Source: Marsupella aquatica (taxonomy: Eukaryota > Plantae > Marchantiophyta). From it: a DNA stretch of 64,000 nucleotides. The translations under genes and the position numbers were made by a program. How positions within the stretch are numbered: position 1 is the first letter of the stretch; each line of letters starts with the position of its first letter. The notes beneath the pieces were generated by a model that made no database searches, had not been told where the DNA came from, and saw nothing but the letters and a program-made list of their open reading frames with translations. The DNA is taken from NCBI GenBank assembly GCA_973895155.1, contig OZ316897.1, forward strand, positions 22,109,455 through 22,173,454. Direction: 5' to 3'. This document shows positions 1 through 59,641 of this stretch, one piece after another.

Positions 1-1859
<1,859 letters not shown>

Positions 1860-6587: not shown

Positions 6588-6701
6588 TGTTAGACTCTAC
6601 CTGGTGACCGGACGACCGGATCAGCCAATCACCGGACCGACACCACTATCTGTACCAACCACCACAGGCTATACATGATTCATTCCATTCATACTCTCAC
6701 A
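6588..6701 (+). repeat. 5' LTR of copia element
   Basis: tgttagactc...ctcaca; direct repeat of 13007-13120 with 4 mismatches seen. Confidence 0.95.
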
Positions 6702-6715
6702 CGTTATCAGCACGA
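6702..6715 (+). promoter_or_regulatory. Primer-binding site of copia element (half-tRNA type)
   Basis: CGTTATCAGCACGA directly follows the LTR and lacks the TGG start of a 3'-CCA PBS; typical of Bianca elements. Confidence 0.7.
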
Positions 6716-15147: not shown

Positions 15148-19358
<4,211 letters not shown>

Positions 19359-27442: not shown

Positions 27443-27889
27443 TGTGTGTGAATATATCGTTTGAACAGAATGACTAACTAGCTAGAGCGTTGAATGCAAA
27501 GTCCGATAATATTATCGACAACTCCATTCCCCCAGCTAGAACATGGTGACAAATAAGGGAGTGGAATAGCTAGAGCGTGGAATGCAAAGTCCGATAAGTC
27601 CCCAACTAGAACACCGTGACAAACAATGGAGTAGAATGCAATGTCCGATAAATTTATCGGGTTCAAACGTAATTGCGATAAATTTATCACACTCCATTCT
27701 CCGAATATTGAGAAGTGGGACTAACATAATCTAACATAACCTAAACTAACCTAACCTAACTATCATACAACCAGATAACAATTTCCTAATCCAGTAACAT
27801 GTCATTGAGATCATCCTCATAAGGCATTCTGGGAGGTTCTTCGGCTTCTTCTTCATTCTCGACCTCCTTCCACTAGTAGAAAACAATGT

Positions 27890-32221: not shown

Positions 32222-35200
32222 TCACTGCTTAGGCCTGCCCTTTCTTGCAGATCCCTCTGCATCTCTGCCTCGTTTGGGACCAGTACTTGGTCCTAGATTT
32301 TCTCTGGACCTACAGGCCTTAGCCAATTCGATGTGTAATTTGGCATTGTTTTCCATTGTAGCATGGAAATCAACGTCTGTGTAATCACCTAACACCCTTG
32401 TGGACCTGGATTCTTTGTGGAGGATTGTTCTCCATGCTATCCCCTTCTCATTGGGGTGGAAGAAAACCTGCTCCACTTGCTTTGGGAAAACGTAATCCAT
32501 TTTCTTGGATACACCCAGTTCTCTATGGAAATTCACCTGCCAAAGACCAGACTCGGAATACCTCATACTGGCAGAGGATTTAGGAGTCCATGATGGATCT
32601 GCCCATTTCCCTTTGAAAAGAATCACCTCTTTCCTCAAGCTGCCGTAATTCAGTACTAAGATATCTGTCAAGGCCCCTACATACTGTACAGATTCTTCTA
32701 TGGTTGCACCAGACCTGTCCACTCGCTTCTCAGTGAATGTAGAAGCCATCCCAGAATCAAAAGTGCTGAAAGCACCAGAATCACAATCACTCAAACACCC
32801 CAAGGATGGAATAGTCCTCCAATGGTGCCCATAGGCTCTGCATGCCCTATACAGTCGTGCCTTCAAACTAGGTGGTGTGGAGTATGCAGATAGTAATGAC
32901 CGCTCAGACTCTTTTTCAAAATTATGGGTATTGACTAATGTTTGAAACCATTCCCTAAAAGGTGACAATTCTTGGCAATCAGCGGGAAATTCCACTGGTT
33001 TTCTTCGATTGGCAGGCTTCCTCATCCATTCCTTCCGGAAATCCACTCTTCGTTTGGTAACAGTCTCATTGGTAGCATCATATATCCTGCATGGCAACAA
33101 CAACACTGAAGACATTAGTGCATGATCCACCATGAATATACAAACACAATGGGGCAACATAATTTAGGGTTTATGTACCTGTATCATGGAGCCACTGTCT
33201 CTTCATTCTCCAATATATAATGATGCATGGCCATCATTTCAGACCAATCCAAAGTTATCGCCTTTGTAGCCCCTTCCAAAACAATGCCTGCAACGCCAAC
33301 ATCCTCCTCCAACTCCCAGGTTCGTTTTCCCTCTCCCTTTGCATCAATCATGTATTCAGAAAGGAATCCCAAAGACTCATCTAATACATAGCCTTCAGCC
33401 ATAGAAGCTTCTGGACGTGCCTTGTTTCGTACATAACCCTTCAATACCTTCAGGTTCCTCTCTATTGGGTACATCCATCTGCCTGTAACTGGGCCACACA
33501 AGTCTAATTCCTCCACTAGGTGAATCATTAAATGGGTCATGACATCAAAGAAGCTTGGTGGAAAATGGATTTCCAAAATGCAGAGAGTGAATGCAACATC
33601 CATCAACAAATTCTCATACATTGAAGGGTCCCACACCTTCGTACAGATCTGGCGATAGATATTGCTCACCCCAGCTATGGCCAAGCGAACCCCTTCATCA
33701 AGTAATCCCATTGTTGCCAGAGGGAGAATCTGTTGCATGAGTTGGTGGAAATCATGTGATTTCAACCCAGAGAGTTTCTTGGATTTTGTAACACACTTTG
33801 CCAAAGAACTTGAAAAACCAATGGGCCCTTTCAAGGTCAATAAAACCTCCAAGAACCTTGTTCTTTCCTTCTTGCTCAGGCAATATGGGGCTGGGGGCAT
33901 CAACAATTTGTCATCCTTACGCTTGGGAGCTGGATTGGGTACAAGCCATAGGTGTTGGCGCACCTGTAAGAGCTTCATGTCTTCTCTCACAGAAGGAGTG
34001 TCCTTGGTCCCAATGATAGTGTGCACAATGTTGTGTGCAAGATTCTTCTCACAGTGCATGGGATCTAGACAATGGTTAAAGAGTAGTTTCTGCAGTGGAC
34101 ACACAATTCAGAAATTAGGGCATTGAATACAACTTTTGGCATCACTGGGCAGTAGTTTGTGCAGTGGACACAATTCAGAAATTACTGCATTGAATACAAC
34201 AATTACAAAATCTGGGGTACAGGAAGTATATGAAGAGAATATATTTCAAAGTCATATGAAGAGATTGCAGAAATTCATTGTAGTAGTATGGAGTCTTACA
34301 TTCCAATAGGGTAACTTGTACAGACCAGTAGCCCTCTTCACTCCATGCACCTTTATGGGGCATTTCTCATCCTCAACCTTGGTTCCTCCCTTCTTCAAAT
34401 ATTCTGTTGTCTCGTCTCCCCACTTCTTTCTATCAGAACTTGTCATTCTACACGGTGTAGGTCGACTCTCAATTGCACCATCAAAGTATTGTGCACTGTC
34501 TGGTCTACGAAAAAGATGCCTTGCTGCTAACCATCGACGGTGGCCACTGTACTCTAATTTCTGCAAGTGCTTAGAACCACGTGCCACACATTCTGGCCCA
34601 CAAATGACACATCCTTTGTATCCAGAGTGTTGTTGTCCAGATATTAAACCATATGCAGGGTAATCATTGATTGTCCACAATAGCACAGCCCTAAGGTTGA
34701 AGTGTTGAGGCAATCCTGGGCGTGGCAATTTGTCAAAGCAGGGCACTCCTTTCTTCCACAACAGCTCCAGCTCCTCATAGAATGGGCCCAATATTATGTC
34801 CAGTTGTTCCTCTGTTACTGAATCAGGTCCTGGAATCAGCATAGCTAGCATGACAAAGAACTTCTTGGTGGTAAGCCAAGGAGGTAAATTGTAATTCAAC
34901 AACAGTATTGGCCAGGTAGACCAAGCTGTGGAATTATTCCCAAAGGGATTCACCCCATCAAGTGCCAACCCAAATCGCACATTCCTTGGTTCAGCTGCAA
35001 ATTTCCGATCAATATTTGTATCCACATGCTTCCAAGCCTTTGAATCTGCTGCGTGCCGAACCATGTTGTCTGTGCTTCTATTCTCATGATGCCAAGTCAT
35101 GAGTTTAGATGTACCAGCAGTGGCATACAATCTCTTCAACCTGGGAATTATAGGGAAATACTGCACCACCTTCCTTGCCTGTAATGAATTCCCCACTCTC

Positions 35201-36159
35201 TTCATCTTGGGCTGCTGACACACTGAACAGTTTTCTAACTTGGCATTCTCACCCCTAAAGAGCATGCAACCTTTCTCACAGACAGGGATTCTCTCATAAT
35301 CCAAGCCAAGCTTTCTCAATAGCTGCTTTGCAGCATATAAGTTCTTGGGCAGATTATGCTCTGCAGGCATACCATGCTCCCCCATCAAAGACAACAATGC
35401 ATTCACTCCTTTGTTTGAGAATCCATGGCCATGACAGATGTTCAGCAGAAGCAACATGAATGACACAACATCTATTTTGCTGCCTGGGAACAAAGGTTGC
35501 ATTGCTGCATCTAAAGATAACTATGCAGGATCAGTCTCCATAGGAGTTTCAGAGGTTTCAAGGGGGTTTACAGGATGGGCACCTCCTTCACTCTCATCAT
35601 CCCCAAGTATAAAATCCAAGTCAAAACGGTCCTGATCATCTAGTTCATGCTCAGGGGATTCTTCATTGGTTCTCAGCAACGTTTCTTCTAGTAGAGCCCT
35701 GATATGTTCTTCGACATCTATAGTAGGATGTTCTTGAACATCCACAGTTGGATACTCTGGAACATCTACAAATAAATGTTCTTCAACATCTACAGTTGGC
35801 TGTTGTGCATAGGATGCCTGCTGAAGGTTTGCTACCCTCAATGCCTCAGGGCCATGTTGTGACATGTAGTCAGCACCCCACTCTTCATCAGAAGAGTCCT
35901 GTCCCTCTCCCACCCACACTCGACATGCAGGGTACCGACCATGTTTAATAAGGTGTAGTCTAGCAGTATTCTGATTAGTCCTATAATTCCCTTTGCAGTT
36001 CACACAAGGGCAGTACATCTTATGGTCCCCACTCTTGTGGCAGGCCTTCTGTTCTCGAACCCACAAAGCATCATCACGATGTTGTACTCTAGCTGGATGG
36101 AAGAGCGGCAACTTTGGAGTTCTACCCACACCTAACGTATTCTGTGGCAATTGTGCCAT
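32222..36159 (-). pseudogene. tnpD: CACTA transposase (TnpD/Tnp2: transposase-associated domain, Transposase_21, DUF4218, DUF4216), with nonsense mutations
   Basis: MYCPCVNC; HAADSKAWKH...EPRNVRFGLALDGVNPF...NYNLPPW...TINDYPAYG; DPMHCEKN, LKSHDFH, FFDVMTHL..HL, GPVTGRWMYPIER, RPEASMAEGY; YVGALTDILVLNYG..LFKGKW..QVFF. In-frame TAG at 35521-35523 and TGA at 33184-33186. Introns near 34090-34300 and 33090-33178. Confidence 0.92.
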
Positions 36160-38188: not shown

Positions 38189-38860
38189 TCAAATCCAAGA
38201 TATGTGACTCCTAGCAGGAGTGCCTAGTGTAGGGTCAATGTCATGGTCAGGACAGTAAAACATCCCCTTCTTGGGCTGCCCATGCGCTGAGTGATCCCAA
38301 ATTGTTCGATCATGGGCAAATCCCCTCTGCTGGATAAATAGCAGGCAGTCCTTGTGCCATGCCTTAGGACACCTCATGCACTGAACCAAAAAGCCATTAG
38401 CCCCATCATTGGGCCCCTGTCCACAAGTAAGACAAATATGGAGTCCACATGATGCTGTGCCAGGAACCAAACACTGCTGACAGTAAAACCGGGCACAGAG
38501 AGGGTCTGGACATTTTCTTACCTCTTCACCCATTTTTCCAGACACATGGCACTTAAAGCAAGAATGTTCCTCATTCTTGCAATCAACACAAAGCCATTCT
38601 CCAACATGGCCATCAGCCAGGGATATAGTTGGACATAGCCATTGCTGACCCAAAGGACAGGAAACATTCTTATGGAAATGTCGGTGGCAAGGCCCATCAC
38701 AAACAATGAGATCCCCTCCCTCATCACAAATCGCACATACATGTGGACTATTCTGGTTAATCTCAATGTCTGAGTATAAGGACAATTGAGGTGCTTGAGA
38801 GGATTCACCTCTGCAACGATTCATGGCCTTCTGCTTATTGCGAGCCATGGTCCTGCACAC
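38189..38860 (-). CDS. Tandem PHD-finger-like zinc-finger protein (EDM2/NSD-type), probable CACTA passenger
   Basis: CAICDEGGDLIVCDGPCHRHFH...WLCVDC...HSCFKC...CPDPLCARFYC..C...CGLHICLTC...LVQCMRCPKAWHKDCL...MFYCPDHDID..LGTP.R.HI. This matches the triple-PHD cassette pattern of plant EDM2/NSD proteins. Confidence 0.75.
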   Translation of the reverse strand: MCRTMARNKQKAMNRCRGESSQAPQLSLYSDIEINQNSPHVCAICDEGGDLIVCDGPCHRHFHKNVSCPLGQQWLCPTISLADGHVGEWLCVDCKNEEHSCFKCHVSGKMGEEVRKCPDPLCARFYCQQCLVPGTASCGLHICLTCGQGPNDGANGFLVQCMRCPKAWHKDCLLFIQQRGFAHDRTIWDHSAHGQPKKGMFYCPDHDIDPTLGTPARSHISWI

Positions 38861-41475: not shown

Positions 41476-42323
41476 CACCCGCAACTTGGAGGAAATGTAA
41501 AGAAGCTATTGCAATGCCAATCAATCAAAGCTCCTGGAAACATGTAGCGCCCAAGTCCTACCGAGGTGCTCCGCCGAACGTGCACAACACACTCAAAAAC
41601 AATGGCAGCCTGAATGGCTTCGGGTCGGAGCTCCTCCTCTAAAGCATGCAAATGGTCAATAGTTTAGGGTCCAGGTCCAAGGCTTCACTCAAACAATGCC
41701 TCGCCCAATGCTTGCCCGACGTTACGCAGCGCAGTGATAAAGTCCCAAGAGCACTTAAACTTTGTGCAACCCTAAAGGTGAGAGCACTCCGCTCGGAAAC
41801 TGATATGTGCACACCAAGAAACCACGACATTCAACGTAGCAGATCGATGGTCCCTAATTTCAAGATTGACCCTAGAGTTAGTCATTTATGAGAGAAGTCC
41901 ATAATGACGGTATGTTCTTGTAAACACTGATATGTCCTAATTTCAAGATTGACCCTAGAGTTAGTTGTGACGCCGCCGGTACGGCGGTTAATGAGTGATT
42001 CAGTCTAACTGCGCTCGGCACGCGCGTTAGGTGGGTCTTAGGCCGCTATTATTAGCATAACGACAGTATTTAGGTAATCATTAGGGGTAGGACATCATTA
42101 GGCAATAAGGGGGACTTCAGGTTCGGGCTGGCGGCGGGTCGCTATTCGCACACCCGGGTTATGAGCATGGAGGGGCCCCTCCCTCGGGTCCGTATAACGA
42201 ACTTAAGGAAGCGGCCACTAACGCACGCTGACTCAGACCGGCGGAGTGGCCGGTACACCACAAGCGTGAGCGGTTCAACCTATGGGCGTCGAGGAGACGT
42301 CGGGGATCGACAAGCCCTCAAAG

Positions 42324-42330
42324 TATAAAA
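42324..42330 (+). promoter_or_regulatory. TATA box in the 5' LTR (copy at ~52423 in the 3' LTR)
   Basis: TATAAAAGGGG followed by a CT-rich leader (ctctctcgttctctct) and the ATG at 42432. Confidence 0.65.
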
Positions 42331-42431
42331 GGGGAGCCAACCCTTTGTAGTGCACCAGTCCATCAGTCCGCGCGCCAGCTTCGACCCCAGCTCTCTCGTT
42401 CTCTCTAGGTCGCCACTACTATCTCCTCTGA

Positions 42432-45074
42432 ATGTCGCACACGATCCTCTCCAGCTCGGCCATTCGATTCTGGACGCAGTTCCTATCTACCGGAAGGCAC
42501 TTGGCCGATTCATTGAAACACGCCAACCCGCGCCGATACGAGATCGAACGCGAATACGAGAGAGCCATCCGCCTAGCAGGACGACACCACTACGTCCTTA
42601 ACTTTGACTACCCGTCTCAGAGCGAGCTTTACCGACCAGCTGAGGTATCTGGGTACTTCTTTGACGGAGACAAATATATCGGGTTCTGGGAAGCATTGCT
42701 TCGGCTTCCGGACGAGGTCTTCAATATCCCGGGTACAATCGACCTGCAGCGACATCACTTCGACCACATCCCTGCCCAGGTTCGGGCAGTCATTAACGGC
42801 GAGTCCAGTACCAACCGTTCGACAAGGGCGTCCGCACTCGCTTCGGAGAACTTCTACCAGCACCTACAGAGCTTCATGGGAACTCGGCCATCAACCAACA
42901 TGACCAACTCAGCCGGACCCGTACCCGTACCCGTACCCGTGCCCATGCAACCTCAGCTTCAGCTTCAGCCTCAGCCGCAGCCTAGCCAAACCCCACCACC
43001 TATCACCCAGCCAGCACAGGTACGCTCCGTCATCAACGCTGTAGATCTTAGCGATGACGACGAGGCTACCCCACCCTTGACCAGGCGGCCCAGAGGAACA
43101 AGCGCTCGGGGGGCCGACACTATACCGTCCCCACCCCCTGCTCTGACCCCAGGAGCGGCCCCAGCAGACAACATGGTGACCGTGGCCGCCCCGGGCCCGT
43201 TACCAACCGCAGTGGCACTCCCCAGGCCCGATCGGGAGGATGGGGAAGTATCACCTTCCCCGAGTCAGTCACGGGGAAAGAAAAGAAAGGAATCCGCCAG
43301 TGCATCCGGGTTACCGTTGGCCACGGTAGCCGTAGCCAAGGTAACGATGCATCGCATGGGGGAAAACGTTCACAGCAACATCCTCCATCCCAAGCATGCG
43401 GTGTACCTGAAGACTCAGGGATTTGAGCACCTCACCTCTCTCCCCTGGAACACTTGCAGGTACTACGGGGAGGACATGACAAAATTCGTCAAGAATTATG
43501 ACGACGTACGTCAACAGACTCGGCTGCGGGGAAGGAATATGTCCCTCACAGAAGAATGGCTCAAGATGATCTTCGGGTTACCCGAAGGTGACCATCGAGT
43601 CAAATCACGGGCTCCCGGGGGCAAGGGGGCCAAGTACCAATCTTCAAGTTTTCCCTCAGAGGGATCAGTAGACAATGGGTTCGTGATGAGGACCTGCCTC
43701 ATGCCCGAGATAGCTGAGCGGCTGGAGTTCCAGAGGTACGCTCTCCACATGATGGAACCCCGGGGGGAGATCTCCGCCGCCCAGGTCATCCAGGTCGAGA
43801 ACTATCGACCTAGGAGGTGGGCGTCGTACTTCGCTAAGAAATTCCATGAAGAGATGGAGCGGCGAAGGAAGACGCTGTACATTGGCGGGAAGGCGTATTT
43901 CGCTAGCCACATCGAAATCATTCTTGAGTGGTATGCCCGGTTTGATCGACGAACCCTTCCCCGCATCAACGTTACAAAGCTGGTTCCAGCTAGGTGGGTT
44001 TTTCCGGCATTGGAGAGACGGCCCCAACCCGAGGCCCGAAGTCCAGTGGACACGCCAGCTTCACCCACCCCACCTCCACAAATAGCCGTAATCATAACCG
44101 AGGAGGCGCCGGAGGGGTCGGACGTCGCAACCGTTGATGCGACCCAACTAGCCGGGCTAAGTACAGAAGTTGGTACGGTAGAGGTCTTACCCGAACCCGG
44201 GTCTCCCAAGGACCCGCCGGTGGCAATTCCGGAGAACCGGACATCGCTGCAGGAGGATACTCCGGCCCCTTCCAACGTTATGTCCCCAGGGCTGGACGTC
44301 ACTGCCCCGGCCCCTGCGCGTGTTGATGTCTGCCCGTGCCCAAATCCGGACAGGCACAACTTGGACCACCCGGAACTCTTCGTACAGGGTACGTTTTTGA
44401 ACGGGCTTCTGGGAGATTTCTCTCATCAAATTGCCCGGGATACCGGGGAGTTCATGGCTCGGAAGGTAGCCTGTTTCTTCAATCAGGAGTTGGTTGCCGC
44501 CGTAAAGGCAGGGCGGGCCCAGTCGGAGGCCCTTCAGAGGATAGAGCGGTACCGGGTGGAGTCCGTGTACCTAAAGAACGAAGTGGCGGCTCAAGAGGCT
44601 GAGCTTCTGCAACTACGACCCAAGGTAGCAGCCGCCGATGAGTTGTTAGCAAAGGCGTACGCTCTTACCGCCCTAGCCGAACAGGCCAAAGCTGGGAACG
44701 AGGCCGAGATTACACGGCTCCGGAACCAGATTGACAGTTTGAAGAAACAAGCTGTCACCTGGCAGAAAGACCTGGAGGAGGCCGAGGAGCGAGCCCAGCG
44801 GGACGCGACGGAGATAGCCACGCTGCAGGCCGAGATGGCGCGGCTCCAAACCGAGGCCGAGAAGCAGGACCAGCTGGCGAGTAAACTGGCGAGCGACGCC
44901 CAGCAGCTGGAGGAGGCATGTCAGGAGGCAGCAGAGGAGACGGACGCGGCGAGGCGAGAGAACGAATCTCTGCTGGACCAGGTCCAGCTCCTCAAAGCGG
45001 ACAATGATAGGCTTCGAAGGCAGCGGGATGGCCGTTCCCATTCGGGCGGCTCTGGCAAGCGTGCCAGGCATTAG
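42432..45074 (+). CDS. LTR-encoded 880-aa protein of unknown function (N-terminal globular region, Pro-rich linker, plant-transposon-accessory-like central domain, C-terminal coiled coil, basic NLS-like motifs)
   Basis: Uninterrupted 2643-nt ORF wholly inside the 5' LTR. Central LKTQGFEHL..LPW...FVKNY....RLRGRNMSLTEEWLKMIFGLP; heptad-rich Glu/Ala/Gln region ~aa 690-865; RGKKRKE and GKRARH motifs. Confidence 0.85.
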   Translation: MSHTILSSSAIRFWTQFLSTGRHLADSLKHANPRRYEIEREYERAIRLAGRHHYVLNFDYPSQSELYRPAEVSGYFFDGDKYIGFWEALLRLPDEVFNIPGTIDLQRHHFDHIPAQVRAVINGESSTNRSTRASALASENFYQHLQSFMGTRPSTNMTNSAGPVPVPVPVPMQPQLQLQPQPQPSQTPPPITQPAQVRSVINAVDLSDDDEATPPLTRRPRGTSARGADTIPSPPPALTPGAAPADNMVTVAAPGPLPTAVALPRPDREDGEVSPSPSQSRGKKRKESASASGLPLATVAVAKVTMHRMGENVHSNILHPKHAVYLKTQGFEHLTSLPWNTCRYYGEDMTKFVKNYDDVRQQTRLRGRNMSLTEEWLKMIFGLPEGDHRVKSRAPGGKGAKYQSSSFPSEGSVDNGFVMRTCLMPEIAERLEFQRYALHMMEPRGEISAAQVIQVENYRPRRWASYFAKKFHEEMERRRKTLYIGGKAYFASHIEIILEWYARFDRRTLPRINVTKLVPARWVFPALERRPQPEARSPVDTPASPTPPPQIAVIITEEAPEGSDVATVDATQLAGLSTEVGTVEVLPEPGSPKDPPVAIPENRTSLQEDTPAPSNVMSPGLDVTAPAPARVDVCPCPNPDRHNLDHPELFVQGTFLNGLLGDFSHQIARDTGEFMARKVACFFNQELVAAVKAGRAQSEALQRIERYRVESVYLKNEVAAQEAELLQLRPKVAAADELLAKAYALTALAEQAKAGNEAEITRLRNQIDSLKKQAVTWQKDLEEAEERAQRDATEIATLQAEMARLQTEAEKQDQLASKLASDAQQLEEACQEAAEETDAARRENESLLDQVQLLKADNDRLRRQRDGRSHSGGSGKRARH

Positions 45075-45986
45075 CGGCGGAGTAGGAATAGATTAGGATT
45101 AGGATTGGCTTAGTCAGGCTCTTGGGACAGGCACCTGCCTTAGGTACGGCAGCGCTGCCCTGCTGTCCAGCCTGCGTAGATTAGGATCTTCTAATAAGAC
45201 ACAGCCGTTTTCCGGCCTGACTGTCAGCTTAGTTAGGACCTTGGTCAGCGAATCTTCGGCGGGAGGACACCCCGTTCCTCGGCTCTTAGTATTTAGTGCA
45301 CCCCTCGGTAGAGGCAGGGGGGGTTTTTTAGTTTCAGAGTCGGACATCTGCGGGACATGCGGGGAGTCCCGACCTCTGGGAATGACAGAGTACCAAGGGG
45401 AGGGGGTAGGACTAAGCTTGCCGGGCGAGTGCGGAGCCGGGCTCCGTTGTAGTGTGCACCCTTGGCCTTGAACCTGTGCATTCCAGGGCTGTCGTGTCAA
45501 CTAAGTGTACGCATATGTTCCCTTTGTAGTAAAAATCCTTTCCCATCATTTTTCCTTCGTGTAAATCGAGATTGTATGCATGTGTGCGCATATGTGTGTG
45601 GGTTTCTCGTATATGGGTGGCAGCGCCGGGCCGAACGCACTACCCGAGACGTGCACAGGGTGCAGCCTGCGGGTAAGTGGTTGCGAGCACGGGTTGAGGA
45701 CCTGTATCATCGAATCCGGATCGAAGGCGGACAGCACGAAGGCTTAGAAGCCCTTAAGCCGGGGTCGATCCTGCTATCGACTAAGGTACGTTTCGGCGGC
45801 GGAACACAAACCATACCTAGGAGGTGTCCGTATTTAGCAGTATGCGCACTTAGCGCTAGTTTATGAGAATAAGGTGCATTACGTGCTTCCCTTCCTGCCC
45901 GAACCCTCAGATTTACGAGGGATGTGCCCGTCTAAGCTGAAGTCTGAGTTAAAGCCGAAGCCTACGACGTGACATAGCCTTTGTTT

Positions 45987-46004
45987 TGGCGCTAGATGGA
46001 GGGG
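45987..46004 (+). promoter_or_regulatory. Primer-binding site, tRNA-Asn-like
   Basis: TGGCGCTAGATGGAGGGG is complementary, with one mismatch, to the plant tRNA-Asn 3' end (…CCCCTCCTTCTAGCGCCA, recalled from memory). It lies 12 nt after the LTR end. Confidence 0.7.
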
Positions 46005-46097
46005 GCACTCTACATATCGTAGAGGGGAGACATGTGCGTATTCACCTAGGCAGGATACATCAGGACGTAGTACTAACCATTGCATTTATATGAGTAA

Positions 46098-49000
46098 ATG
46101 CCCGTCACTCGTTCTCAAGCAGCTTACTTGAGGAGATTGACCAGCGAACGAGAAAGTGCAACCACAACAAGCTCCGACTCGTCGGGCTCGGAGGACTCGC
46201 AATCGTCCCGACGTATGAACATACCCCCGGGATCTTCGGGGTCCGGTTCGACCGGCCCTGCTGCGGTTCCACCACCACCACCACCACCACCACCACCTAT
46301 GGCAGCCGCTCCACCGGTGGCCCGCGCTGCTCAGGCGCCTCCACAAATATCGCAACGATCGCGATTTCATTATCGACCTTTCAAAGGGCGTCATGGGGAT
46401 GATCCGGATGAATGGTTGGATGAGTTTGAAGCCACTGCTAAAGCTAATGGGGAAGACGCCATTAAGCTAACCATCCTCCCGGGAGTAATGCGGGGAGAAG
46501 CTCGTCCATGGTACAACTCGTTACCACCCGGGACTACCTGGGCACAATTCCAAGCTGCATTGCTGCAGGAGTTTCGTGCCATTGGATCAGAACAACGTTC
46601 TCTATTAAAGATTGGCCAGCTTCGCATGGGAAAAAAAGAGTCCCTGCGGAAGTTCATTCAGAAGTTTCAGAAACTTGCGGCCAAGATCCGGCCCAGGCCA
46701 GGAGACGCGCTCCAGCTTACATGGTTCCTTCATGGTTTGCCCACGAATATGCAATTCTGGGTACGCCAGAATAATCCAATTTCAATGCAGGCGGCCATAG
46801 CGTGCGCCGAAACTTACCGGGAGTCCACCTATAACTCCCGGCGGAGCCAGCGAGCACGCCGCAGGAAGGGTAAGTACGAAACCTTCAGTGACAGTGACTC
46901 CGAATCGGACGACGAGAGGAAGAAGAAACGGAAGAAGAAGAAGAAACATCGTTTGACCTCGTCCAGCTCCGAGACGGAATCCAGTTCGGATTCAGCTTCA
47001 AGCATCGGATCCTCTACCTCCAGTTCATCAGGAAGTGACTTGGAGAGCGAAAGCCGGAGCAAAAAGAAGAAGAGACGAGTGAAGAAGGAGGGGAAGATTA
47101 AACCCCGGGCGCAAAGAACGATACCAGATCCAAAGGCTGCCGAAGCAGACAAGCTGAACGAAATCACGGATCGACTCAAAGCACTGTCAGTACATCTTTC
47201 GGAGAAGCCGGTGGAGAAGAAGAAGCCATCTGAGATTCGAGCCCATGCGTGGTGTTCAAAGTGCTTCCAATCCGGCCATGTGGTGCAGGAATGCCCAAGG
47301 TGGAAGAACCGAGTTCACCAAGTAGAGCTGGATGATGTTGACAACCCGGGCCCCGAATCGGAGTCCACGGAGTATTTCTTTGAGGACCCTCCTGATTCCG
47401 TGTACCAGATTTCAACGGTTGGTCCGCGTAATTTAGCGGGTAGAACTGCGTACCCCTACCCAAGTAATGGCCGGAGTTTCCAGGTTATCAGTAACCCGAG
47501 CATCCCTCCTAAGCCAGGGATGTGGCGGTCCCCGGTTTGTTACAACTGTGAAAAGCCAGGACACTTTGCGAGGGAATGCACCGAACCAAGACGTCAGGGA
47601 GATGGCCGAGGCACCCCACTATGTCAAGTTTGCAAAACAGAGGCTCATTCCACGGCCAACTGTCCGTTGGTAATCGCTGCTCGAACAAGTGCGGCTAGAC
47701 CGGCCCAGGCTGGACCAGTCACGAGCGATGCAGTCGTCCAAATGATTGCTGTAGAATGGCAAGATGACAACACCGAGTGGGTGAATCTGGTGGACGTGGC
47801 GGAACACCCTAATCCATTGGATGAGGCCGAGTGCTACCGAGTGTCGACAAGGGCCGAACGGAAGGAAGAAAAGACGGAGGAGAAACGGAGGAAAAAGCAA
47901 GATACTACTCCAGTGCAGCCAGCGATAAATATACCCCCGGAAAAGGACGATGACTACCGACGGGACGACCCGAAGCTATTTTTCCCCCGCATCGAAGAAT
48001 TGGTAAAGAAACAGCTGGAGGCTTACGAAGCTCGGGAATACCAGAAGGCAATCGATAAGGACATCAAAGCAGCCGAGACAGCCCGGCGTCAGGAGCAAGA
48101 AAAGCAAGATAAACAAGAGGAAGCCAAGCAGCAGCCAACGAAAGAAACAAAGGAGGACTATGATATTAAGGAGGACGTGAAGAGTTGCCCGGTTACAACG
48201 ACGGTGGGGCAACTGCTGCAGAACAACCCACAGTACAGACGACAACTGAGGGAGTTGCTCATGGGTCGCCGAAGGAGAAGACTACCCCGAGTTGGGAGTG
48301 CGGACTGCAACATGATATGCGAGGACCTTCGAGCGCCGGACATCTCGATCGAAATTAATAACTGTACCATCAAGATGGTCCTTGTAGACGGAGGAGCGGG
48401 AGTCAACATCATGACTGAAGAAACGTCAGTCAAGTTAGGATACCTCACGTATCAACCCACGGCCCGAGCTATCAGATTAGCAAACGGGGCAAGGGTCCTC
48501 CCATTAGGCACGCTCACACGAGTGCTCACTCTGGTGGGAGGGGTAGAGTTCTATCTCAACTTCTTAGTCATGAGGCCGGTTCGTCCCTCCTCTTATCCGG
48601 TTCTTCTGGGCAGGCCGTGGCTGTACGGTGGCCGTGTAGTCACGGATTGGGGAAAGAAGGAGCTACGGTTCGGGGAACCCACCGTACGGGTATCCTGGGC
48701 AATGGACGATTATCAGGGAGAAACCCCACAAGGACCCGAGGAATATGATTCGGAGACCTCGGAGGAAGAGGAACTCAATATGATCGAACTCATCTCGTCC
48801 CTATCCGAGGAAGATGTCTTCGGAGTTGAAGCAACCCGAGAAACACATCTCCTAAATTACCCGAGGGCTGCCATTGAGTCCACCCCAAGTACATCTACTG
48901 TCGGGGATGAGGAAACGCACGAACAACTCGTCGAGACGGAGGACACGGCTCCAGCTAAGCAGGGAGCCGTGGCTACTCCTTCCATTTCAGAGCCTTGTAA

Positions 49001-52000
49001 CCATGAACCAGCCCAACAACCGCCTGAGGCCGAAAACTTGAGACCGAGACATAAAAAGCGAGTCTCATGGGATCCGTCCATTCCGCAATTGGAGGAAGTA
49101 AACCCCATCCCGAGACCAATCCCGGTCCCACCCATGTACGGAGGGGTTCGGTTAGCTGAGCTTGACGCGAGCCTGGACCCGAGTCTGCGAAACCAGGTTG
49201 AAGTCATCAGGAAGGAGCACTACCGGAAGTACACTATTGGGATGGACAAATCTTTTAACCTGGGCCACGCTTTGACGGGGAAGGCTGAAAAAGCCATCCA
49301 AGCTTTGCTCAAGGAATATGAAGATGTGTTTGCATGGAGTCATCATGATTTAACAGGCGTCTCCCCCGAGTTGGGAGAACACACAATCGATCTGAACCTA
49401 GGAGCCCATGCGGTACGACAGCGACAACGTCGCATGAATCCGAGGTACTCCATCTTAGTGAAGGAGGAAATTGATCGTCTCCTCGCCGCCGATATCATTT
49501 ACCCGGTAATGGCCAGCGACTGGGTCTCTCCCATTGTCATTGTACCAAAGAAGGGAGGTACGGATGGAAAACCTAAGATTCGTATCTGTCAGGACTACCG
49601 TAAGCTGAATGACGCAACCCGAAAAGACCATTACCCATTACCATTCACGGATATGGTTCTAGATATGGTGGCCCGAAATGAAATCTATACATTTCTTGAC
49701 GGGTATTCAGGTTATAACCAAATCTGGATTCGTCTCGCGGATCAGCTCAAAACAACGTTCACTACGGAGTGGGGAACGTTCGCATTTCGGAGGATGCCTT
49801 TTGGTCTGTGTAACGCCCCGGCTATGTTTCAGCGCCTTATGATGAATATCTTCCACGATTTCCTACGGGAATTTTTGGAGATATTTATCGATGACTTTGC
49901 CATCTTCGGAACCGTTGCCATGCACCCCGAACACCTACGACGAACGTTGCAACGATGCCGAGATGTTAACCTCAAACTACATCCCGCCAAATGCTTCTTC
50001 GGGGTAGAGGAGGGGGTGTTACTCGGGCATCGTGTGTCCAAACGGGGCATTGAGGTGGACCAAGAGAAAGTTGCGGCCTGGATGGCGGTGGTGTTCCCCT
50101 TGGATCAAAAAGCAGTACGATCCTTCTTGGGCTGCGTAGGGTATTACCGCCGGTTCATTAAAGACTTTGCTAAAATTGCGTTGCCCTTAACTGAGATGAT
50201 GAAGAAGGACGCAGCGGTCGAGGAAACACCCCGGAGACGGATTGCTTTTGAGGAACTCCGTAAACGACTCACCACCGCGCCTATCATGGTCACCCCAGAT
50301 TGGAATAAGGAGTTCCACGTGTATGTCGATGTGTCAGGGTTCTGTATCGGATCCGTACTTAGTCAGCTAGATGAGGATGGACGTGATCACCCCATCTATT
50401 TCGCTAGCCGTCAACTATTTGCAGCCGAAAAGAATTATTCCCCCACTGATCGAGAAGCTTTGGAAATAATCTACTCGTGTAAAAAGTTCCGACACTATCT
50501 GCTAGGCTACAAGGTCATTTTCCACACGGATCATGATAGCCTGAAGTACATGGTCAACAAAGCGGATGTGACAGGACGGATAGCCCGGTGGGTGCTACTT
50601 CTCCAGGAATTTAATTACGAAGTTCGGGTTCGGCCAGGAAGGGTACACCTCAATGCCGATTTCTTTTCACGACTGGACGGCGTACCAGTCGATCAGCCAA
50701 TTGATGATATTTTTCCGGATGAGGAGTTGTTCCACGTAGGGGAAGGGACACCAACGTGGTATGGCTCAATAATCACCTTCCTTTTAACGGGCCGCATCCC
50801 TGACGGCATCAATCAGGAGGCCGCCGCTGTGTTTTTACGGAAAGCCGGGCCTTATGTCATGATACAGGGTCACCTACATAAGGAAGGTATTAACGGAAAG
50901 TTACGACGCTGCTTAGAGTATAAGGAGACACTTATCGTGATACGGGCCCTGCATGAAGAAGAAGCTGGAGGCCATTTCGCGGCAGTTACGACAGCCCAAA
51001 AGATTCTGGACTCGGGGTATTGGTGGCCTACGTTGCATCGGGATGTACAGCGCTTCATTAAGGGCTGTGACTTGTGTCAGCGAGCGGGGGCCCCGAGGCG
51101 GGCTCATCATCACCCGCTCACATCTGTGCTTCCATTGGCACCATTCAAAAAATGGGGAATTGATTATATCGGACCGTTCACTCCCGTTACCCGAAGGCGA
51201 AGGTGCAGGTACATCCTATTAGCTATTGATTACTCCACCAAATGGGTCGAAGCGCGGGCTACGGTAAAGGACGACGCCGCAACCAGTGCCAGATTCTTAT
51301 ACGAACAGATTTTCACCCGATTCGGACCGCCCTTAGAATTGGTAAGCGACCGTGGAACCCACTTCCTCAATGACACCGTAGCCCAGCTTACGGAGCGTTA
51401 CCTAGTCAAGCACCGCAAGACTACCCCATATCATCCTAAAGCCAACGGGATGGCGGAGAGAGCAAATGGTATCATTGGGAAGATCCTCAACAAAACTGTA
51501 GCTGCGCACAAAATGGATTGGGATGATAAGTTGTACGCGGCGGTGTACTCGTATAATCTAGCTTACAAAACTACTACGAGTCATAGCCCGTACTTTCTGG
51601 TGTTCGGCCAACATTCGTTGGTGCCCGTCGAATTTGAAGTGCACACTCCACGGGTCAGCATTCGGGATCGCTTACCTGAATCTGAAAGTCTGTCAGACCG
51701 AGCTTATCAGATTGAAGCCTTGGAAGAAGCACGGCTACTGGCAGCTCGACACACCGTGAAGAAACAGGCAACTTCGAAGAAGCAGCACGACAAAGGACTA
51801 CGGAGGGTCGACGTCGTGGCAGGCGATCTAGTCCTTCTGTACGATAGTAGGTACATGCAGTTTCCAGGGAAGCTGCATACCCGGTGGTTGGGGCCCTTCC
51901 TTGTCAATCAGATCTACCGAAACGGATCTTTGGAGCTTGCGACGTATGCCGGCGATTTACTCCCCACACGAATCAGCTACGATCGTGTAAAAAAGTACCA

Positions 52001-52097
52001 CCATCAAGATGACGACGCCGATAGCGATGTTCGCGAGGACGCTTCACAATTAAGCAGGGAGCTATGTGACGCCGCCGGTACGGCGGTTAATGAGTGA
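46098..52097 (+). CDS. gag-pol: Ty3/gypsy Gag-Pol polyprotein (single ORF, 1999 aa)
   Basis: Gag DPDEWLDEFE; three CCHC knuckles; protease LVDGGAG; RT CQDYRKLN, FLDGYSGYNQI, MPFGLCNAP, FIDD; RNase H YVDVSG...TDHDSL; integrase GGHF/CDLC, WGIDYIGP, SDRGTHF, NGMAE; WLGPF motif; no chromodomain. The stop lies 33 nt inside the 3' LTR. Confidence 0.97.
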   Translation: MPVTRSQAAYLRRLTSERESATTTSSDSSGSEDSQSSRRMNIPPGSSGSGSTGPAAVPPPPPPPPPPMAAAPPVARAAQAPPQISQRSRFHYRPFKGRHGDDPDEWLDEFEATAKANGEDAIKLTILPGVMRGEARPWYNSLPPGTTWAQFQAALLQEFRAIGSEQRSLLKIGQLRMGKKESLRKFIQKFQKLAAKIRPRPGDALQLTWFLHGLPTNMQFWVRQNNPISMQAAIACAETYRESTYNSRRSQRARRRKGKYETFSDSDSESDDERKKKRKKKKKHRLTSSSSETESSSDSASSIGSSTSSSSGSDLESESRSKKKKRRVKKEGKIKPRAQRTIPDPKAAEADKLNEITDRLKALSVHLSEKPVEKKKPSEIRAHAWCSKCFQSGHVVQECPRWKNRVHQVELDDVDNPGPESESTEYFFEDPPDSVYQISTVGPRNLAGRTAYPYPSNGRSFQVISNPSIPPKPGMWRSPVCYNCEKPGHFARECTEPRRQGDGRGTPLCQVCKTEAHSTANCPLVIAARTSAARPAQAGPVTSDAVVQMIAVEWQDDNTEWVNLVDVAEHPNPLDEAECYRVSTRAERKEEKTEEKRRKKQDTTPVQPAINIPPEKDDDYRRDDPKLFFPRIEELVKKQLEAYEAREYQKAIDKDIKAAETARRQEQEKQDKQEEAKQQPTKETKEDYDIKEDVKSCPVTTTVGQLLQNNPQYRRQLRELLMGRRRRRLPRVGSADCNMICEDLRAPDISIEINNCTIKMVLVDGGAGVNIMTEETSVKLGYLTYQPTARAIRLANGARVLPLGTLTRVLTLVGGVEFYLNFLVMRPVRPSSYPVLLGRPWLYGGRVVTDWGKKELRFGEPTVRVSWAMDDYQGETPQGPEEYDSETSEEEELNMIELISSLSEEDVFGVEATRETHLLNYPRAAIESTPSTSTVGDEETHEQLVETEDTAPAKQGAVATPSISEPCNHEPAQQPPEAENLRPRHKKRVSWDPSIPQLEEVNPIPRPIPVPPMYGGVRLAELDASLDPSLRNQVEVIRKEHYRKYTIGMDKSFNLGHALTGKAEKAIQALLKEYEDVFAWSHHDLTGVSPELGEHTIDLNLGAHAVRQRQRRMNPRYSILVKEEIDRLLAADIIYPVMASDWVSPIVIVPKKGGTDGKPKIRICQDYRKLNDATRKDHYPLPFTDMVLDMVARNEIYTFLDGYSGYNQIWIRLADQLKTTFTTEWGTFAFRRMPFGLCNAPAMFQRLMMNIFHDFLREFLEIFIDDFAIFGTVAMHPEHLRRTLQRCRDVNLKLHPAKCFFGVEEGVLLGHRVSKRGIEVDQEKVAAWMAVVFPLDQKAVRSFLGCVGYYRRFIKDFAKIALPLTEMMKKDAAVEETPRRRIAFEELRKRLTTAPIMVTPDWNKEFHVYVDVSGFCIGSVLSQLDEDGRDHPIYFASRQLFAAEKNYSPTDREALEIIYSCKKFRHYLLGYKVIFHTDHDSLKYMVNKADVTGRIARWVLLLQEFNYEVRVRPGRVHLNADFFSRLDGVPVDQPIDDIFPDEELFHVGEGTPTWYGSIITFLLTGRIPDGINQEAAAVFLRKAGPYVMIQGHLHKEGINGKLRRCLEYKETLIVIRALHEEEAGGHFAAVTTAQKILDSGYWWPTLHRDVQRFIKGCDLCQRAGAPRRAHHHPLTSVLPLAPFKKWGIDYIGPFTPVTRRRRCRYILLAIDYSTKWVEARATVKDDAATSARFLYEQIFTRFGPPLELVSDRGTHFLNDTVAQLTERYLVKHRKTTPYHPKANGMAERANGIIGKILNKTVAAHKMDWDDKLYAAVYSYNLAYKTTTSHSPYFLVFGQHSLVPVEFEVHTPRVSIRDRLPESESLSDRAYQIEALEEARLLAARHTVKKQATSKKQHDKGLRRVDVVAGDLVLLYDSRYMQFPGKLHTRWLGPFLVNQIYRNGSLELATYAGDLLPTRISYDRVKKYHHQDDDADSDVREDASQLSRELCDAAGTAVNE

Positions 52098-55000
52098 TTC
52101 AGTCTAACTGCGCTCGGCACGCGCGTTAGGTGGGTCTTAGGCCGCTATTATTAGCATAACGACAGTATTTAGGTAATCATTAGGGGTAGGACATCATTAG
52201 GCAATAAGGGGGACTTCAGGTTCGGGCTGGCGGCGGGTCGCTATTCGCACACCCGGGTTATGAGCATGGAGGGGCCCCTCCCTCGGGTCCGTATAACGAA
52301 CTTAAGGAAGCGGCCACTAACGCACGCTGACTCAGACCGGCGGAGTGGCCGGTACACCACAAGCGTGAGCGGTTCAACCTATGGGCGTCGAGGAGACGTC
52401 GGGGATCGACAAGCCCTCAAAGTATAAAAGGGGAGCCAACCCTTTGTAGTGCACCAGTCCATCAGTCCGCACGCCAGCTTCGACCCCAGCTCTCTCGTTC
52501 TCTCTAGGTCGCCACTACTATCTCCTCTGAATGTCGCACACGATCCTCTCCAGCTCGGCCATTCGATTCTGGACGCAGTTCCTATCTACCGGAAGGCACT
52601 TGGCCGATTCATTGAAACACGCCAACCCGTGCCGATACGAGATTGAACGCGAATACGAGAGAGCCATCCGCCTAGCAGGACGACACCACTACGTCCTTAA
52701 CTTTGACTACCCGTCTCAGAGCGAGCTTTACCGACCAGCTGAGGTATCTGGGTACTTCTTTGACGGAGACAAATATATCGGGTTCTGGGAAGCATTGCTT
52801 CGGCTTCCGGACGAGGTCTTCAATATCCCGGGTACAATCGACCTGCAGCGACATCACTTCGACCACATCCCTGCCCAGGTTCGGGCAGTCATTAACGGCG
52901 AGTCCAGTACCAACCGTTCGACAAGGGCGTCTGCACTCGCTTCGGAGAACTTCTACCAGCACCTACAGAGCTTCATGGGAACTCGGCCATCAACCAACAT
53001 GACCAACTCAGCCGTACCCGTACCCGTACCCGTGCCCATGCAACCTCAGCTTCAGCTTCAGCCTCAGCCGCAGCCTAGCCAAACCCCACCACCTATCACC
53101 CAGCCAGCACAGGTACGCTCCGTCATCAACGCTGTAGATCTTAGCGATGACGACGAGGCTACCCCACCCTTGACCAGGCGGCCCAGAGGAACAAGCGCTC
53201 GGGGGGCCGACACTATACCGTCCCCACCCCCTGCTCTGACCCCAGGAGCGGCCCCAGCAGACAACATGGTGACCGTGGCCGCCCCGGGCCCGTTACCAAC
53301 CGCAGTGGCACTCCCCAGGCCCGATCGGGAGGATGGGGAAGTATCACCTTCCCCGAGTCAGTCACGGGGAAAGAAGAGAAAGGAATCCGCCAGTGCATCC
53401 GGGTTACCGTTGGCCACGGTAGCCGTAGCCAAGGTAACGATGCATCGCATGGGGGAAAACGTTCACAGCAACATCCTCCATCCCAAGCATGCGGTGTACC
53501 TGAAGACTCAGGGATTTGAGCACCTCGCCTCTCTCCCCTGGAACACTTGCAGGTACTACAGGGAGGACATGACAGAATTCGTCAAGAATTATGACGACGT
53601 ACGTCAACAGACTCGGCTGCGGGGAAGGAATATGTCCCTCACAGAAGAATGGCTCAAGATGATCTTCGGGTTACCCGAAGGTGACCATCGAGTCAAATCA
53701 CGGGCTCCCGGGGGCAAGGGGGCCAAGTACCAGTCTTCAAGTTTTCCCTCAGAGGGATCAGTAGACAATGGGTTCGTGATGAGGACCTGCCTCATGCCCG
53801 AGATAGCTGAGCGGCTGAAGTTCCAGAGGTACGCTCTCCACATGATGGAACCCCGGGGGGAGATCTCCGCCGCCCAGGTCATCCAGGTCGAGAACTATCG
53901 ACCTAGGAGGTGGGCGTCGTACTTCGCTAAGAAATTCCATGAAGAGATGGAGCGGCGAAGGAAGACGCTGTACATTGGCGGGAAGGCGTATTTCGCTAGC
54001 CACATCGAAATCATTCTTGAGTGGTATGCCCGGTTTGATCGACGAACCCTTCCCCGCATCAACGTTACAAAGCTGGTTCCAGCTAGGTGGGTTTTTCCGG
54101 CATTGGAGAGACGGCCCCAACCCGAGGCCCGAAGTCCAGTGGACACGCCAGCTTCACCCACCCCACCTCCACAAATAGCCGTAATCATAACCGAGGAGGC
54201 GCCGGAGGGGTCGGACGTCGCAACCGTTGATGCGACCCAACTAGCCGGGCTAAGTACAGAAGTTGGTACGGTAGAGGTCTTACCCGAACCCGGGTCTCCC
54301 AAGGACCCGCCGGTGGCAATTCCGGAGAACCGGACATCGCTGCAGGAGGATACTCCGGCCCCTTCCAACGTTATGTCCCCAGGGCTGGACGTCACTGCCC
54401 CGGCCCCTGCGCGTGTTGATGTCTGCCCGTGCCCAAATCCGGACAGGCACAACTTGGACCACCCGGAACTCTTCGTACAGGGTACGTTTTTGAACGGGCT
54501 TCTGGGAGATTTCTCTCATCAAATTGCCCGGGATACCGGGGAGTTCATGGCTCGGAAGGTAGCCTGTTTCTTCAATCAGGAGTTGGTTGCCGCCGTAAAG
54601 GCAGGGCGGGCCCAGTCGGAGGCCCTTCAGAGGATAGAGCGGTACCGGGTGGAGTCCGTGTACCTAAAGAACGAAGTGGCGGCTCAAGAGGCTGAGCTTC
54701 TGCAACTACGACCCAAGGTAGCAGCCGCCGATGAGTTGTTAGCAAAGGCGTACGCTCTTACCGCCCTAGCCGAACAGGCCAAAGCTGGGAACGAGGCCGA
54801 GATTACACGGCTCCGGAACCAGATTGACAGTTTGAAGAAACAAGCTGTCACCTGGCAGAAAGACCTGGAGGAGGCCGAGGAGCGAGCCCAGCGGGACGCG
54901 ACGGAGATAGCCACGCTGCAGGCCGAGATGGCGCGGCTCCAAACCGAGGCCGAGAAGCAGGACCAGCTGGCGAGTAAACTGGCGAGCGACGCCCAGCAGC

Positions 55001-56067
55001 TGGAGGAGGCATGTCAGGAGGCAGCAGAGGAGACGGACACGGCGAGGCGAGAGAACGAATCTCTGCTGGACCAGGTCCAGCTCCTCAAAGCGGACAATGA
55101 TAGGCTTCGAAGGCAGCGGGATGGCCGTTCCCATTCGGGCGGCTCTGGCAAGCGTGCCAGGCATTAGCGGCGGAGTAGGAATAGATTAGGATTAGGATTG
55201 GCTTAGTCAGGCTCTTGGGACAGGCACCTGCCTTAGGTACGGCAGCGCTGCCCTGCTGTCCAGCCTGCGTAGATTAGGATCTTCTAATAAGACACAGCCG
55301 TTTTCCGGCCTGACTGTCAGCTTAGTTAGGACCTTGGTCAGCGAATCTTCGGCGGGAGGACACCCCGTTCCTCGGCTCTTAGTATTTAGTGCACCCCTCG
55401 GTAGAGGCAGGGGGGGTTTTTTAGTTTCAGAGTCGGACATCCGCGGGACATGCGGGGAGTCCCGACCTCTGGGAATGACAGAGTACCAAGGGGAGGGGGT
55501 AGGACTAAGCTTGCCGGGCGAGTGCGGAGCCGGGCTCCGTTGTAGTGTGCACCCTTGGCCTTCAACCTGTGCATTCCAGGGCTGTCGTGTCAACTAAGTG
55601 TACGCATATGTTCCCTTTGTAGTAAAAATCCTTTCCCATCATTTTTCCTTCGTGTAAATCGAGATTGTATGCATGTGTGCGCATATGTGTGTGGGTTTCT
55701 CGTATATGGGTGGCAGCGCCGGGCCGAACGCACTACCCGAGACGTGCACAGGGTGCAGCCTGCGGGTAAGTGGTTGCGAGCACGGGTTGAGGACCTGTAT
55801 CATCGAATCCGGATCGAAGGCGGACAGCACGAAGGCTTAGAAGCCCTTAAGCCGGGGTCGATCCTGCTATCGACTAAGGTACGTTCCGGCGGCGGAACAC
55901 AAACCATACCTAGGAGGTGTCCGTATTTAGCAGTATGCGCACTTAGCGCTAGTTTACGAGAATAAGGTGCATTATGTGCTTCCCTTCCTGCCCAAACCCT
56001 CAGATTTACGAGGGATGTGCCCGTCTAAGCTGAAGTCTGAGTTAAAGCCGAAGCCTACGACGTGACA
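52065..56067 (+). repeat. 3' LTR (4003 bp)
   Basis: Direct repeat of the 5' LTR with a 6-bp deletion and a small number of substitutions. Confidence 0.96.
52531..55167 (+). CDS. Second copy of the LTR-encoded protein (878 aa)
   Basis: Intact ORF in the 3' LTR; differs from 42432-45074 by a GP deletion and about six residue changes. Confidence 0.85.
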   Translation: MSHTILSSSAIRFWTQFLSTGRHLADSLKHANPCRYEIEREYERAIRLAGRHHYVLNFDYPSQSELYRPAEVSGYFFDGDKYIGFWEALLRLPDEVFNIPGTIDLQRHHFDHIPAQVRAVINGESSTNRSTRASALASENFYQHLQSFMGTRPSTNMTNSAVPVPVPVPMQPQLQLQPQPQPSQTPPPITQPAQVRSVINAVDLSDDDEATPPLTRRPRGTSARGADTIPSPPPALTPGAAPADNMVTVAAPGPLPTAVALPRPDREDGEVSPSPSQSRGKKRKESASASGLPLATVAVAKVTMHRMGENVHSNILHPKHAVYLKTQGFEHLASLPWNTCRYYREDMTEFVKNYDDVRQQTRLRGRNMSLTEEWLKMIFGLPEGDHRVKSRAPGGKGAKYQSSSFPSEGSVDNGFVMRTCLMPEIAERLKFQRYALHMMEPRGEISAAQVIQVENYRPRRWASYFAKKFHEEMERRRKTLYIGGKAYFASHIEIILEWYARFDRRTLPRINVTKLVPARWVFPALERRPQPEARSPVDTPASPTPPPQIAVIITEEAPEGSDVATVDATQLAGLSTEVGTVEVLPEPGSPKDPPVAIPENRTSLQEDTPAPSNVMSPGLDVTAPAPARVDVCPCPNPDRHNLDHPELFVQGTFLNGLLGDFSHQIARDTGEFMARKVACFFNQELVAAVKAGRAQSEALQRIERYRVESVYLKNEVAAQEAELLQLRPKVAAADELLAKAYALTALAEQAKAGNEAEITRLRNQIDSLKKQAVTWQKDLEEAEERAQRDATEIATLQAEMARLQTEAEKQDQLASKLASDAQQLEEACQEAAEETDTARRENESLLDQVQLLKADNDRLRRQRDGRSHSGGSGKRARH

Positions 56068-56308
56068 TTAGTCATTTATGAGAGAAGTCCATAATGACGG
56101 TATGTTCTTGTAAACACTGATATGTCCTAATTTCAAGATTGACCCTAGAGTTAGTCATTTATGAGAGAAGTCCATAATGATGGTATGTTCTTGTAAACAC
56201 TGATATGTCCTAATTTCAAGATTGACCCTAGAGTTAGTCATTTATGAGAGAAGTCCATAATGACGGTATGTTCTTGTAAACACTGATATGTCCTAATTTC
56301 AAGATTGA

Positions 56309-59300: not shown

Positions 59301-59509
59301 GTGAGTACAAAAGTAGTCAAGGGGACTACCTCTCTAGAAGTGGAGAGTTGAAACTACTTATGTATGGAGTGATTGGACATTGTAAGCACACTTCAGAAGT
59401 TTTGTCAATCCTTTGTGACCCTGGTATGACATGGAGCAGGTATTAGGTAGTCTTTTGGGGAGAAAAGCCGCTTAAGCTCCTTGGCAAGTGTTTGACATAG
59501 AGTCCCACC
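56309..59509 (+). repeat. Putative 5' LTR (~3.2 kb) of the second Ty3 element
   Basis: TGTGGGA…TCCCAC inverted termini, candidate TATATAA at 58655, internal ~110-bp direct repeat (~58920-59025 vs ~59100-59205) and GCTGCT-rich tracts. The second LTR is not in the window. Confidence 0.65.
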
Positions 59510-59517
59510 CTTGTTTT

Positions 59518-59535
59518 TGGCGCCGCTGCCGGGGA
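59518..59535 (+). promoter_or_regulatory. Primer-binding site, tRNA-Asp-like
   Basis: TGGCGCCGCTGCCGGGGA, close to the Athila-type tRNA-Asp PBS TGGCGCCGTTGCCGGGGA. Confidence 0.8.
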
Positions 59536-59641
59536 CAACTCTTTACAGTTTTTGTTGGAGTGGAGCCACAAGACTTGGAGGTGTGTTTGCAGGTTTGCTG
59601 TTCAAGAGAAGAAGGGAGATAAGAAGGTGATTGTGAGTGGC

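Follow-up and report, generated by a model that had tools for sequence, protein, structure and literature searches.

A selected gene inside the long terminal repeat of a liverwort Ty3/gypsy retrotransposon encodes a protein with a predicted VANC21-like core

What use does a retrotransposon have for a long gene placed wholly within its long terminal repeat (LTR)? The question is raised by an intact, intron-free open reading frame (ORF) of 880 aa at 42432..45074 (+) of a 64,000-nucleotide stretch of the liverwort Marsupella aquatica (contig OZ316897.1, positions 22,109,455 to 22,173,454; hereafter the window); the ORF falls within the 5' LTR of a Ty3/gypsy element. A sequence-only reading of the locus had taken the product for a nuclear accessory factor and not an envelope protein. 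The analysis presented here demonstrates that the LTR ORF is a gene under purifying selection among copies. The overall reading, for which the chances seem roughly even, is of a selected, LTR-encoded protein with a predicted VANC21-like core that is likely nuclear, binds the DNA of its own element and opposes host silencing.

Evidence for selection comes from five sequencing runs representing three studies and three organisms (library type not on record), each of which contains 45-67% of the LTR's words. Mapping of four of these runs to the LTR gave 347 to 12,222 contigs apiece, numbers that fit a very abundant family. Counted by site rather than estimated on a tree, as are all selection figures given here, 26 of the 40 LTR variants listed out of 394 fall in the ORF, where 15 are synonymous and none creates a stop. 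Within the central domain, the best 40 of 59 variants include 29 at third codon positions and 28 that are synonymous, versus 23-30% expected (p<=2e-7), with a crude omega of 0.13-0.18. Additionally, the 10 listed indel rows, at 9 places, are all located outside the ORF, which makes up 64% of the stretch concerned (p 1e-4, or 8e-4 with neighboring places merged), and none of the rows listed touches the central domain. The ORFs of this copy's two LTRs differ by 4 synonymous and 6 non-synonymous changes, as expected of drift after insertion. In one contig from the mapped runs, position 44983 of the ORF is joined directly to the beginning of the LTR (41969), suggesting a nested self-insertion in another copy.

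The nature of the selected protein is suggested by its central domain (43323..43985 (+)), which provided the only clear fold match among structure searches of the two globular domains: aa 298-518 are predicted to share the fold of the VANC21 DNA-binding region (PDB 9LNJ/9LNK), a member of the DUF1985/plant mobile domain (PMD) superfamily, at 10% identity. The motifs on which the sequence-only reading had based a resemblance to Transposase_32, the PMD or Athila ORF1 are all present (LxxxGFxxL at aa326, FVxNY at aa352 and RGRxxxLTxxxLxxxFGLP at aa366). Profile searches, which that reading had proposed alongside structural ones, revealed no match at the Pfam gathering threshold for PF09331 (DUF1985), PMD, Transposase_32 or ATHILA in the ORF protein or its relatives. 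Specifically, among the 25 families listed, the hidden Markov model (HMM) of PF10536 (PMD) was matched by none of the 44 alignment members, and the query protein matched neither PF20167 nor PF03078. A single relative of the 44, P0021, aligns to positions 3-58 of PF20167 (E 0.059; 13.7 bits vs a cut-off of 45), over the same segment to which the earlier reading had pointed. Atlas leads were obtained to clusters of DUF1985, PF20167, PF10536 and PF03078, with scores of 0.81 for Transposase_32/Athila ORF1 and likewise 0.81 for a cluster with a PMD in 20% of its members; similarity to PMD structures is indirect, by way of VANC21 and of this second lead. Taken together, the VANC21 fold, the Atlas leads and the published structural homology of VANC and the PMD protein MAIN (PMC13547354) uphold the proposed resemblance at the level of the superfamily, to which the modeled core very probably belongs, and the Pfam scores do not bear it out at the level of any one family.

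Relatives of the core were collected by phmmer, using aa290-535 as query against 1.84 billion representative proteins. The search returned 42 proteins at E<=0.001, of which 16 reached <=1e-10; one match, P0033, was rejected as a repeat-protein false match. Names were attached to 9 of 20 relatives checked, all of them annotated as 'unnamed protein product' and belonging to the liverwort Calypogeia fissa (20-33% identity), and P0041 is a tenth. The relatives found in liverworts are many and divergent, and truncation is frequent among them, as is typical of transposable element (TE) genes. Conserved features of the core are a scaffold of hydrophobic residues, several basic positions and the residues H322, C422 and H493 (each ~90%), and no acidic triad is invariant; the net charge is positive in 17 of 20 relatives and amounts to +8 over aa304-504 in the protein described here. 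The three conserved residues (window 43395-43910) are potential metal ligands.

The remainder of the protein is organized around this core. The ORF is preceded directly by an in-frame stop, and the other five frames contain 23-37 stops. At its start, the N-terminal segment is aromatic-rich, as had been noted (13% F/W/Y over aa1-150), and is more properly described as a folded helical domain (42453..42794 (+), aa ~8-121; AlphaFold2 pLDDT 82) common to six relatives. It is followed by a low-complexity linker (42882..43301 (+), aa 151-290) devoid of aromatic residues, whose description as P/Q-rich was accurate for proline (21%) and not for glutamine (7%, with only a short Gln tract). A candidate nuclear localization signal (NLS), RGKKRKE, is found as described at aa281 (43272..43292 (+)), ahead of the core, and downstream of the core lies a Pro/acidic linker (44007..44321 (+), aa 526-630) that the earlier reading had not listed. 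The CPCPxxxxHxxxH motif is indeed present (44331..44369 (+), aa 634-646), but relatives do not conserve it: 7 of 7 long relatives have no CxC, which indicates that the motif is private to this copy's family, and it is probably not functional. Finally, the C-terminus consists, as anticipated, of a long predicted coiled coil (44529..45026 (+), aa ~700-865), with heptad a/d hydrophobicity of 0.62-0.88 from aa691 to ~865 and counterparts in several long relatives, and of a basic tail ending in GKRARH (45027..45071 (+)). One relative, P0044 (906 aa), aligns over the full length at 30% identity (pairwise E 5e-97), has RKRK at the position of the basic motif ahead of the core and retains the RDGRS...GKRAR pattern of the tail.

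The element carrying this gene is a full-length, non-chromovirus Ty3/gypsy LTR retrotransposon, as judged from its TG...CA LTRs, target-site duplication (TSD), primer binding site (PBS), polypurine tract (PPT) and the order Gag, protease, reverse transcriptase, RNase H and integrase. Its 5' LTR (41966..45974 (+); 4,009 bp) contains the complete ORF, and its 3' LTR (52065..56067 (+); 4,003 bp) contains a second intact copy of 878 aa (52531..55167 (+)). The LTRs are flanked by perfectly matching 5-bp TSDs, TTAGT, at 41961..41965 (+), within an 83-bp tandem repeat, and 56068..56072 (+). The LTRs are 99.4% identical, differing by 17 substitutions (~0.4%) and one in-frame 6-bp indel, a divergence that indicates a young insertion. 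No shorter LTR was found hidden inside the 4-kb repeat, and matches between the non-coding sequences on either side of the ORF do not exceed 10-11 bp, which argues that the repeat is one LTR and not a tandem artefact. The PBS (45987..46004 (+)) begins 12 nt beyond the 5' LTR and presumably accepts tRNA-Asn as primer, and a short purine-rich tract at 52052..52061 (+), ahead of the 3' LTR, is the candidate PPT. A single gag-pol ORF (46098..52097 (+); 1,999 aa, comprising Gag, zinc knuckles, protease, reverse transcriptase, RNase H and integrase) occupies nearly the entire internal region and stops 33 nt within the 3' LTR; a scan of it gave no match to a chromodomain or to a second RNase H (aRH). 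An internal region composed almost wholly of polyprotein is likewise a feature of Phygy/Selgy (PMC6317226), but the TSD here measures 5 bp; aRH-less Tat clades occur in liverworts (PMC10508981).

Immediately downstream, and in the same 83-bp repeat, lies a related gypsy element (56309-64000 (+)) with 68% nucleotide identity to the ORF-bearing element over 1.1 kb of pol, a gag ATG at 59642 and a frame open to the window end. Its LTR, ~3.2 kb in length, contains no long ORF, and its PBS, at 59518, is a different one. Being without an LTR ORF and strongly depleted in CpG, this neighbor provides a natural control lineage.

How might an LTR-borne gene of this kind serve its element? A candidate promoter, TATAAAA (42324..42330 (+)), is the only canonical TATA-like box on the plus strand of the LTR and lies 108 nt upstream of the ORF with no ATG between, and a T/TG-rich block with a TGTA cluster (45450..45600 (+)), 400-500 nt past the stop, is a candidate polyadenylation region. 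From a 5', 3' or solo LTR alike, the TATA box could drive a monocistronic, LTR-only mRNA, leaving gag-pol to be expressed by splicing or a second start. The branch-point-like heptamer TACTAAC at 46071-46077, 21 nt ahead of the gag ATG, may mark a splice route to gag-pol. RGKKRKE and the basic tail would mediate nuclear import of the protein, the basic VANC-like core would bind the DNA of the element's own family, and the coiled coil would multimerize it, as has been modeled for VANC21 and the Athila domain (PMC13547354). The protein may recruit host chromatin factors, counter repressive chromatin and keep copies of the family open to transcription. Of these propositions, a function in the nucleus as a nucleic-acid or chromatin factor is probable, and self-directed anti-silencing or trans-activation is evenly poised. 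Evidence bearing on anti-silencing points both ways. The observed/expected CpG ratio is 0.93 in the element's gag-pol vs 0.13 in the related neighbor that has no LTR ORF. However, a copia element in the window likewise retains CpG (0.86), and 11 of 16 LTR-LTR transitions of this copy fall at CG (p 4e-4), a pattern that marks methylated DNA. A search of the element for VANDAL-type tandem motif arrays found none, nor any clear k-mer excess. Two motifs, both noticed post hoc and not significant genome-style, are candidates for binding. TTAGG is present in two one-strand clusters of 5 copies each, one on either side of the ORF (42027-42102 and 45093-45237), and GTATTTA occurs 3 times in the non-coding LTR and 0 times in the coding parts.

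Other roles have to be weighed against the same evidence. An envelope or membrane-fusion protein would be in keeping with the sense orientation of the 3' LTR copy after pol, with the long coiled coil and with six N-x-S/T sequons, yet the Kyte-Doolittle 19-mer maximum across the protein is 1.13, below transmembrane grade and consistent with the earlier statement that no transmembrane helix is obvious; among 34 relatives, values above 1.6 occur in only 2, in each case away from the conserved domains. Hydropathy likewise revealed no hydrophobic core of a signal peptide, aa 8-26 being a helix of the folded domain, and four cysteines lie outside the CPCP motif. Because there is no transmembrane-grade segment, the basic motifs are kept in P0044 and the sole clear fold match of the two globular domains is a nuclear DNA-binding protein, the product is likely a nuclear helper, as had been argued, and an envelope function is highly improbable. 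Recent capture of the ORF from a host gene, or its carriage as neutral cargo, is also very unlikely. Capture of host genes by retrotransposons does occur (PMC7264820) and MAIN-like host genes share the fold (PMC13547354), but purifying selection acts among the TE copies, no host protein family was matched by sequence, and the many liverwort relatives diverge and are often truncated as those of a TE gene would be.

A nuclear protein might instead bind host chromatin or the pre-integration complex and, as a targeting or import factor, steer integration in place of the missing chromodomain. The NLS-like motifs, DNA-binding-type fold and coiled coil are compatible with such a role, which has been proposed for additional ORFs (PMC7264820), as are the lack of a chromodomain match in gag-pol and the location in a tandem repeat; the sister element, however, inserted into that same repeat without an LTR ORF, and those members of the fold that have been characterized affect the state of chromatin rather than integration (bioRxiv 2024.09.27.615353; PMC5735166), so that targeting appears unlikely. 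Were the protein to bind family DNA and dampen it, as a self-limiting repressor or condenser akin to MAIN/MAIL1, or to act on host genes, this would accord with the requirement for MAIN and MAIL1, both PMD proteins, in TE silencing and heterochromatin condensation (PMC5418596) and with the resemblance of this copy's CpG mutations to those of methylated DNA. This, too, is unlikely: the family is young and very abundant, its gene is kept by selection on replicating copies, and MAIL1's part in silencing has been reinterpreted as an indirect, anti-Polycomb action on MORC1 (bioRxiv 2024.09.27.615353). The protein might also act on RNA, suppressing RNA silencing or regulating splicing, export or packaging so that gag-pol can be expressed behind a 2.6-kb upstream ORF. 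The layout of the element is compatible with this: if transcription starts near 42355, the ORF is the first cistron of the genomic RNA, and gag-pol needs a separate expression route. The core is basic, and other additional ORFs have been suggested to act in RNA silencing (PMC11728184), but the sole clear structural match is a DNA-bound protein and profile scans matched no RNA-binding family, making this reading unlikely.

Self-directed anti-silencing, the reading favored here, has a precedent in VANC21, which binds YAGTATTAY in tandem arrays and hypomethylates its own family (PMC5735166). VANC (PF09331), however, is a gene of VANDAL Mutator-like DNA transposons and is described as dicot-specific and as derived from MAIN (PMC13547354), whereas the present ORF lies inside the LTR of a Ty3/gypsy retrotransposon, has named relatives from a liverwort, carries an additional N-terminal helical domain, showed no tandem motif arrays in the search and matches neither the VANC Pfam profile nor DUF287. 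PMD (PF10536; PMD-A of Ogre, MAIN/MAIL) is placed in the same structural superfamily by the published VANC-PMD homology and the Atlas lead; PMD-C is similar to DUF1985, and at DNA motifs the MAIL proteins counteract Polycomb (bioRxiv 2024.09.27.615353). PMD-A is likewise an extra ORF of angiosperm Gypsy elements (PMC6317226, PMC5418596), and whether the PMD originated in Gypsy or in the host is described as 'fully open' (PMC5418596). Unlike the PMD, which has been described from angiosperms, the present core spans ~220 aa and matches no PMD HMM, and Ogre elements carry the aRH that was not detected here. Athila ORF1 (PF03078)/Transposase_32 (PF20167) is similarly a sense extra ORF of an aRH-less, non-chromovirus Ty3/gypsy element with a coiled coil and an NLS-like motif (RGGKRKL in sunflower Athila 14; PMC11728184), but it occupies the internal region, and the best PF20167 score obtained here is far below cut-off. 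Known extra ORFs reside in the internal region, and their function is still described as an open question (PMC6317226, PMC7264820); the literature search found no plant element with a long ORF wholly within the LTR. Among retroviruses, LTR-borne accessory genes include sag of mouse mammary tumor virus, the overlapping nef of human immunodeficiency virus and bel of foamy viruses. As here, such a gene is doubled together with its LTR and could be expressed from one end or the other; the proteins are unrelated, and the present case is a plant retrotransposon in which coding sequence takes up 2.6 kb of a 4-kb LTR.

Structural modeling supports, at the superfamily level, a new and divergent VANC/PMD-fold accessory family in an unusual position inside the LTR. 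A broader scenario, possible but doubtful at present, is that a non-seed-plant retrotransposon lineage moved a VANC/PMD-fold anti-silencing gene into its LTR and represents an early retrotransposon branch of the superfamily that also gave rise to angiosperm PMD-A, host MAIN/MAIL and VANC. If this is true, each full element would have two copies of the gene and each solo LTR one complete, self-promoted copy able to de-repress the family in trans. An element is normally disarmed when it is reduced to a solo LTR, yet with the gene placed as it is here, both the ORF and its candidate promoter would survive the event intact. A transposon protein with anti-silencing activity has been demonstrated in the case of VANC of Arabidopsis DNA transposons; a Pfam-invisible family with the predicted fold, carried by a retrotransposon and with liverwort relatives, would extend the superfamily back past the angiosperms and connect VANC, PMD, Transposase_32 and Athila ORF1 with one another. 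A new anti-silencer with sequence specificity could also find use in epigenome editing. As the ORF is intact and intron-free, the idea is directly testable.

Elsewhere in the window, the copia-type element mentioned above comprises several ORFs at 8258-12230 (+), and CACTA/En-Spm-like transposase pieces, strongly depleted in CpG (observed/expected 0.23), lie at 32222-36159 (-), both recognized by eye. Near the CACTA-like element, a Cys/His-rich 219-aa ORF (38189-38848 (-)) resembles stacked PHD fingers by eye. A direct duplication of 3.8 kb (86%) links 1-3779 and 17502-21263, a 35-bp tandem array spans 21700-22250, and an inverted duplication of 732 bp (97%; 23920-24651 and 26735-27466) carries ORFs of 254 and 224 aa.
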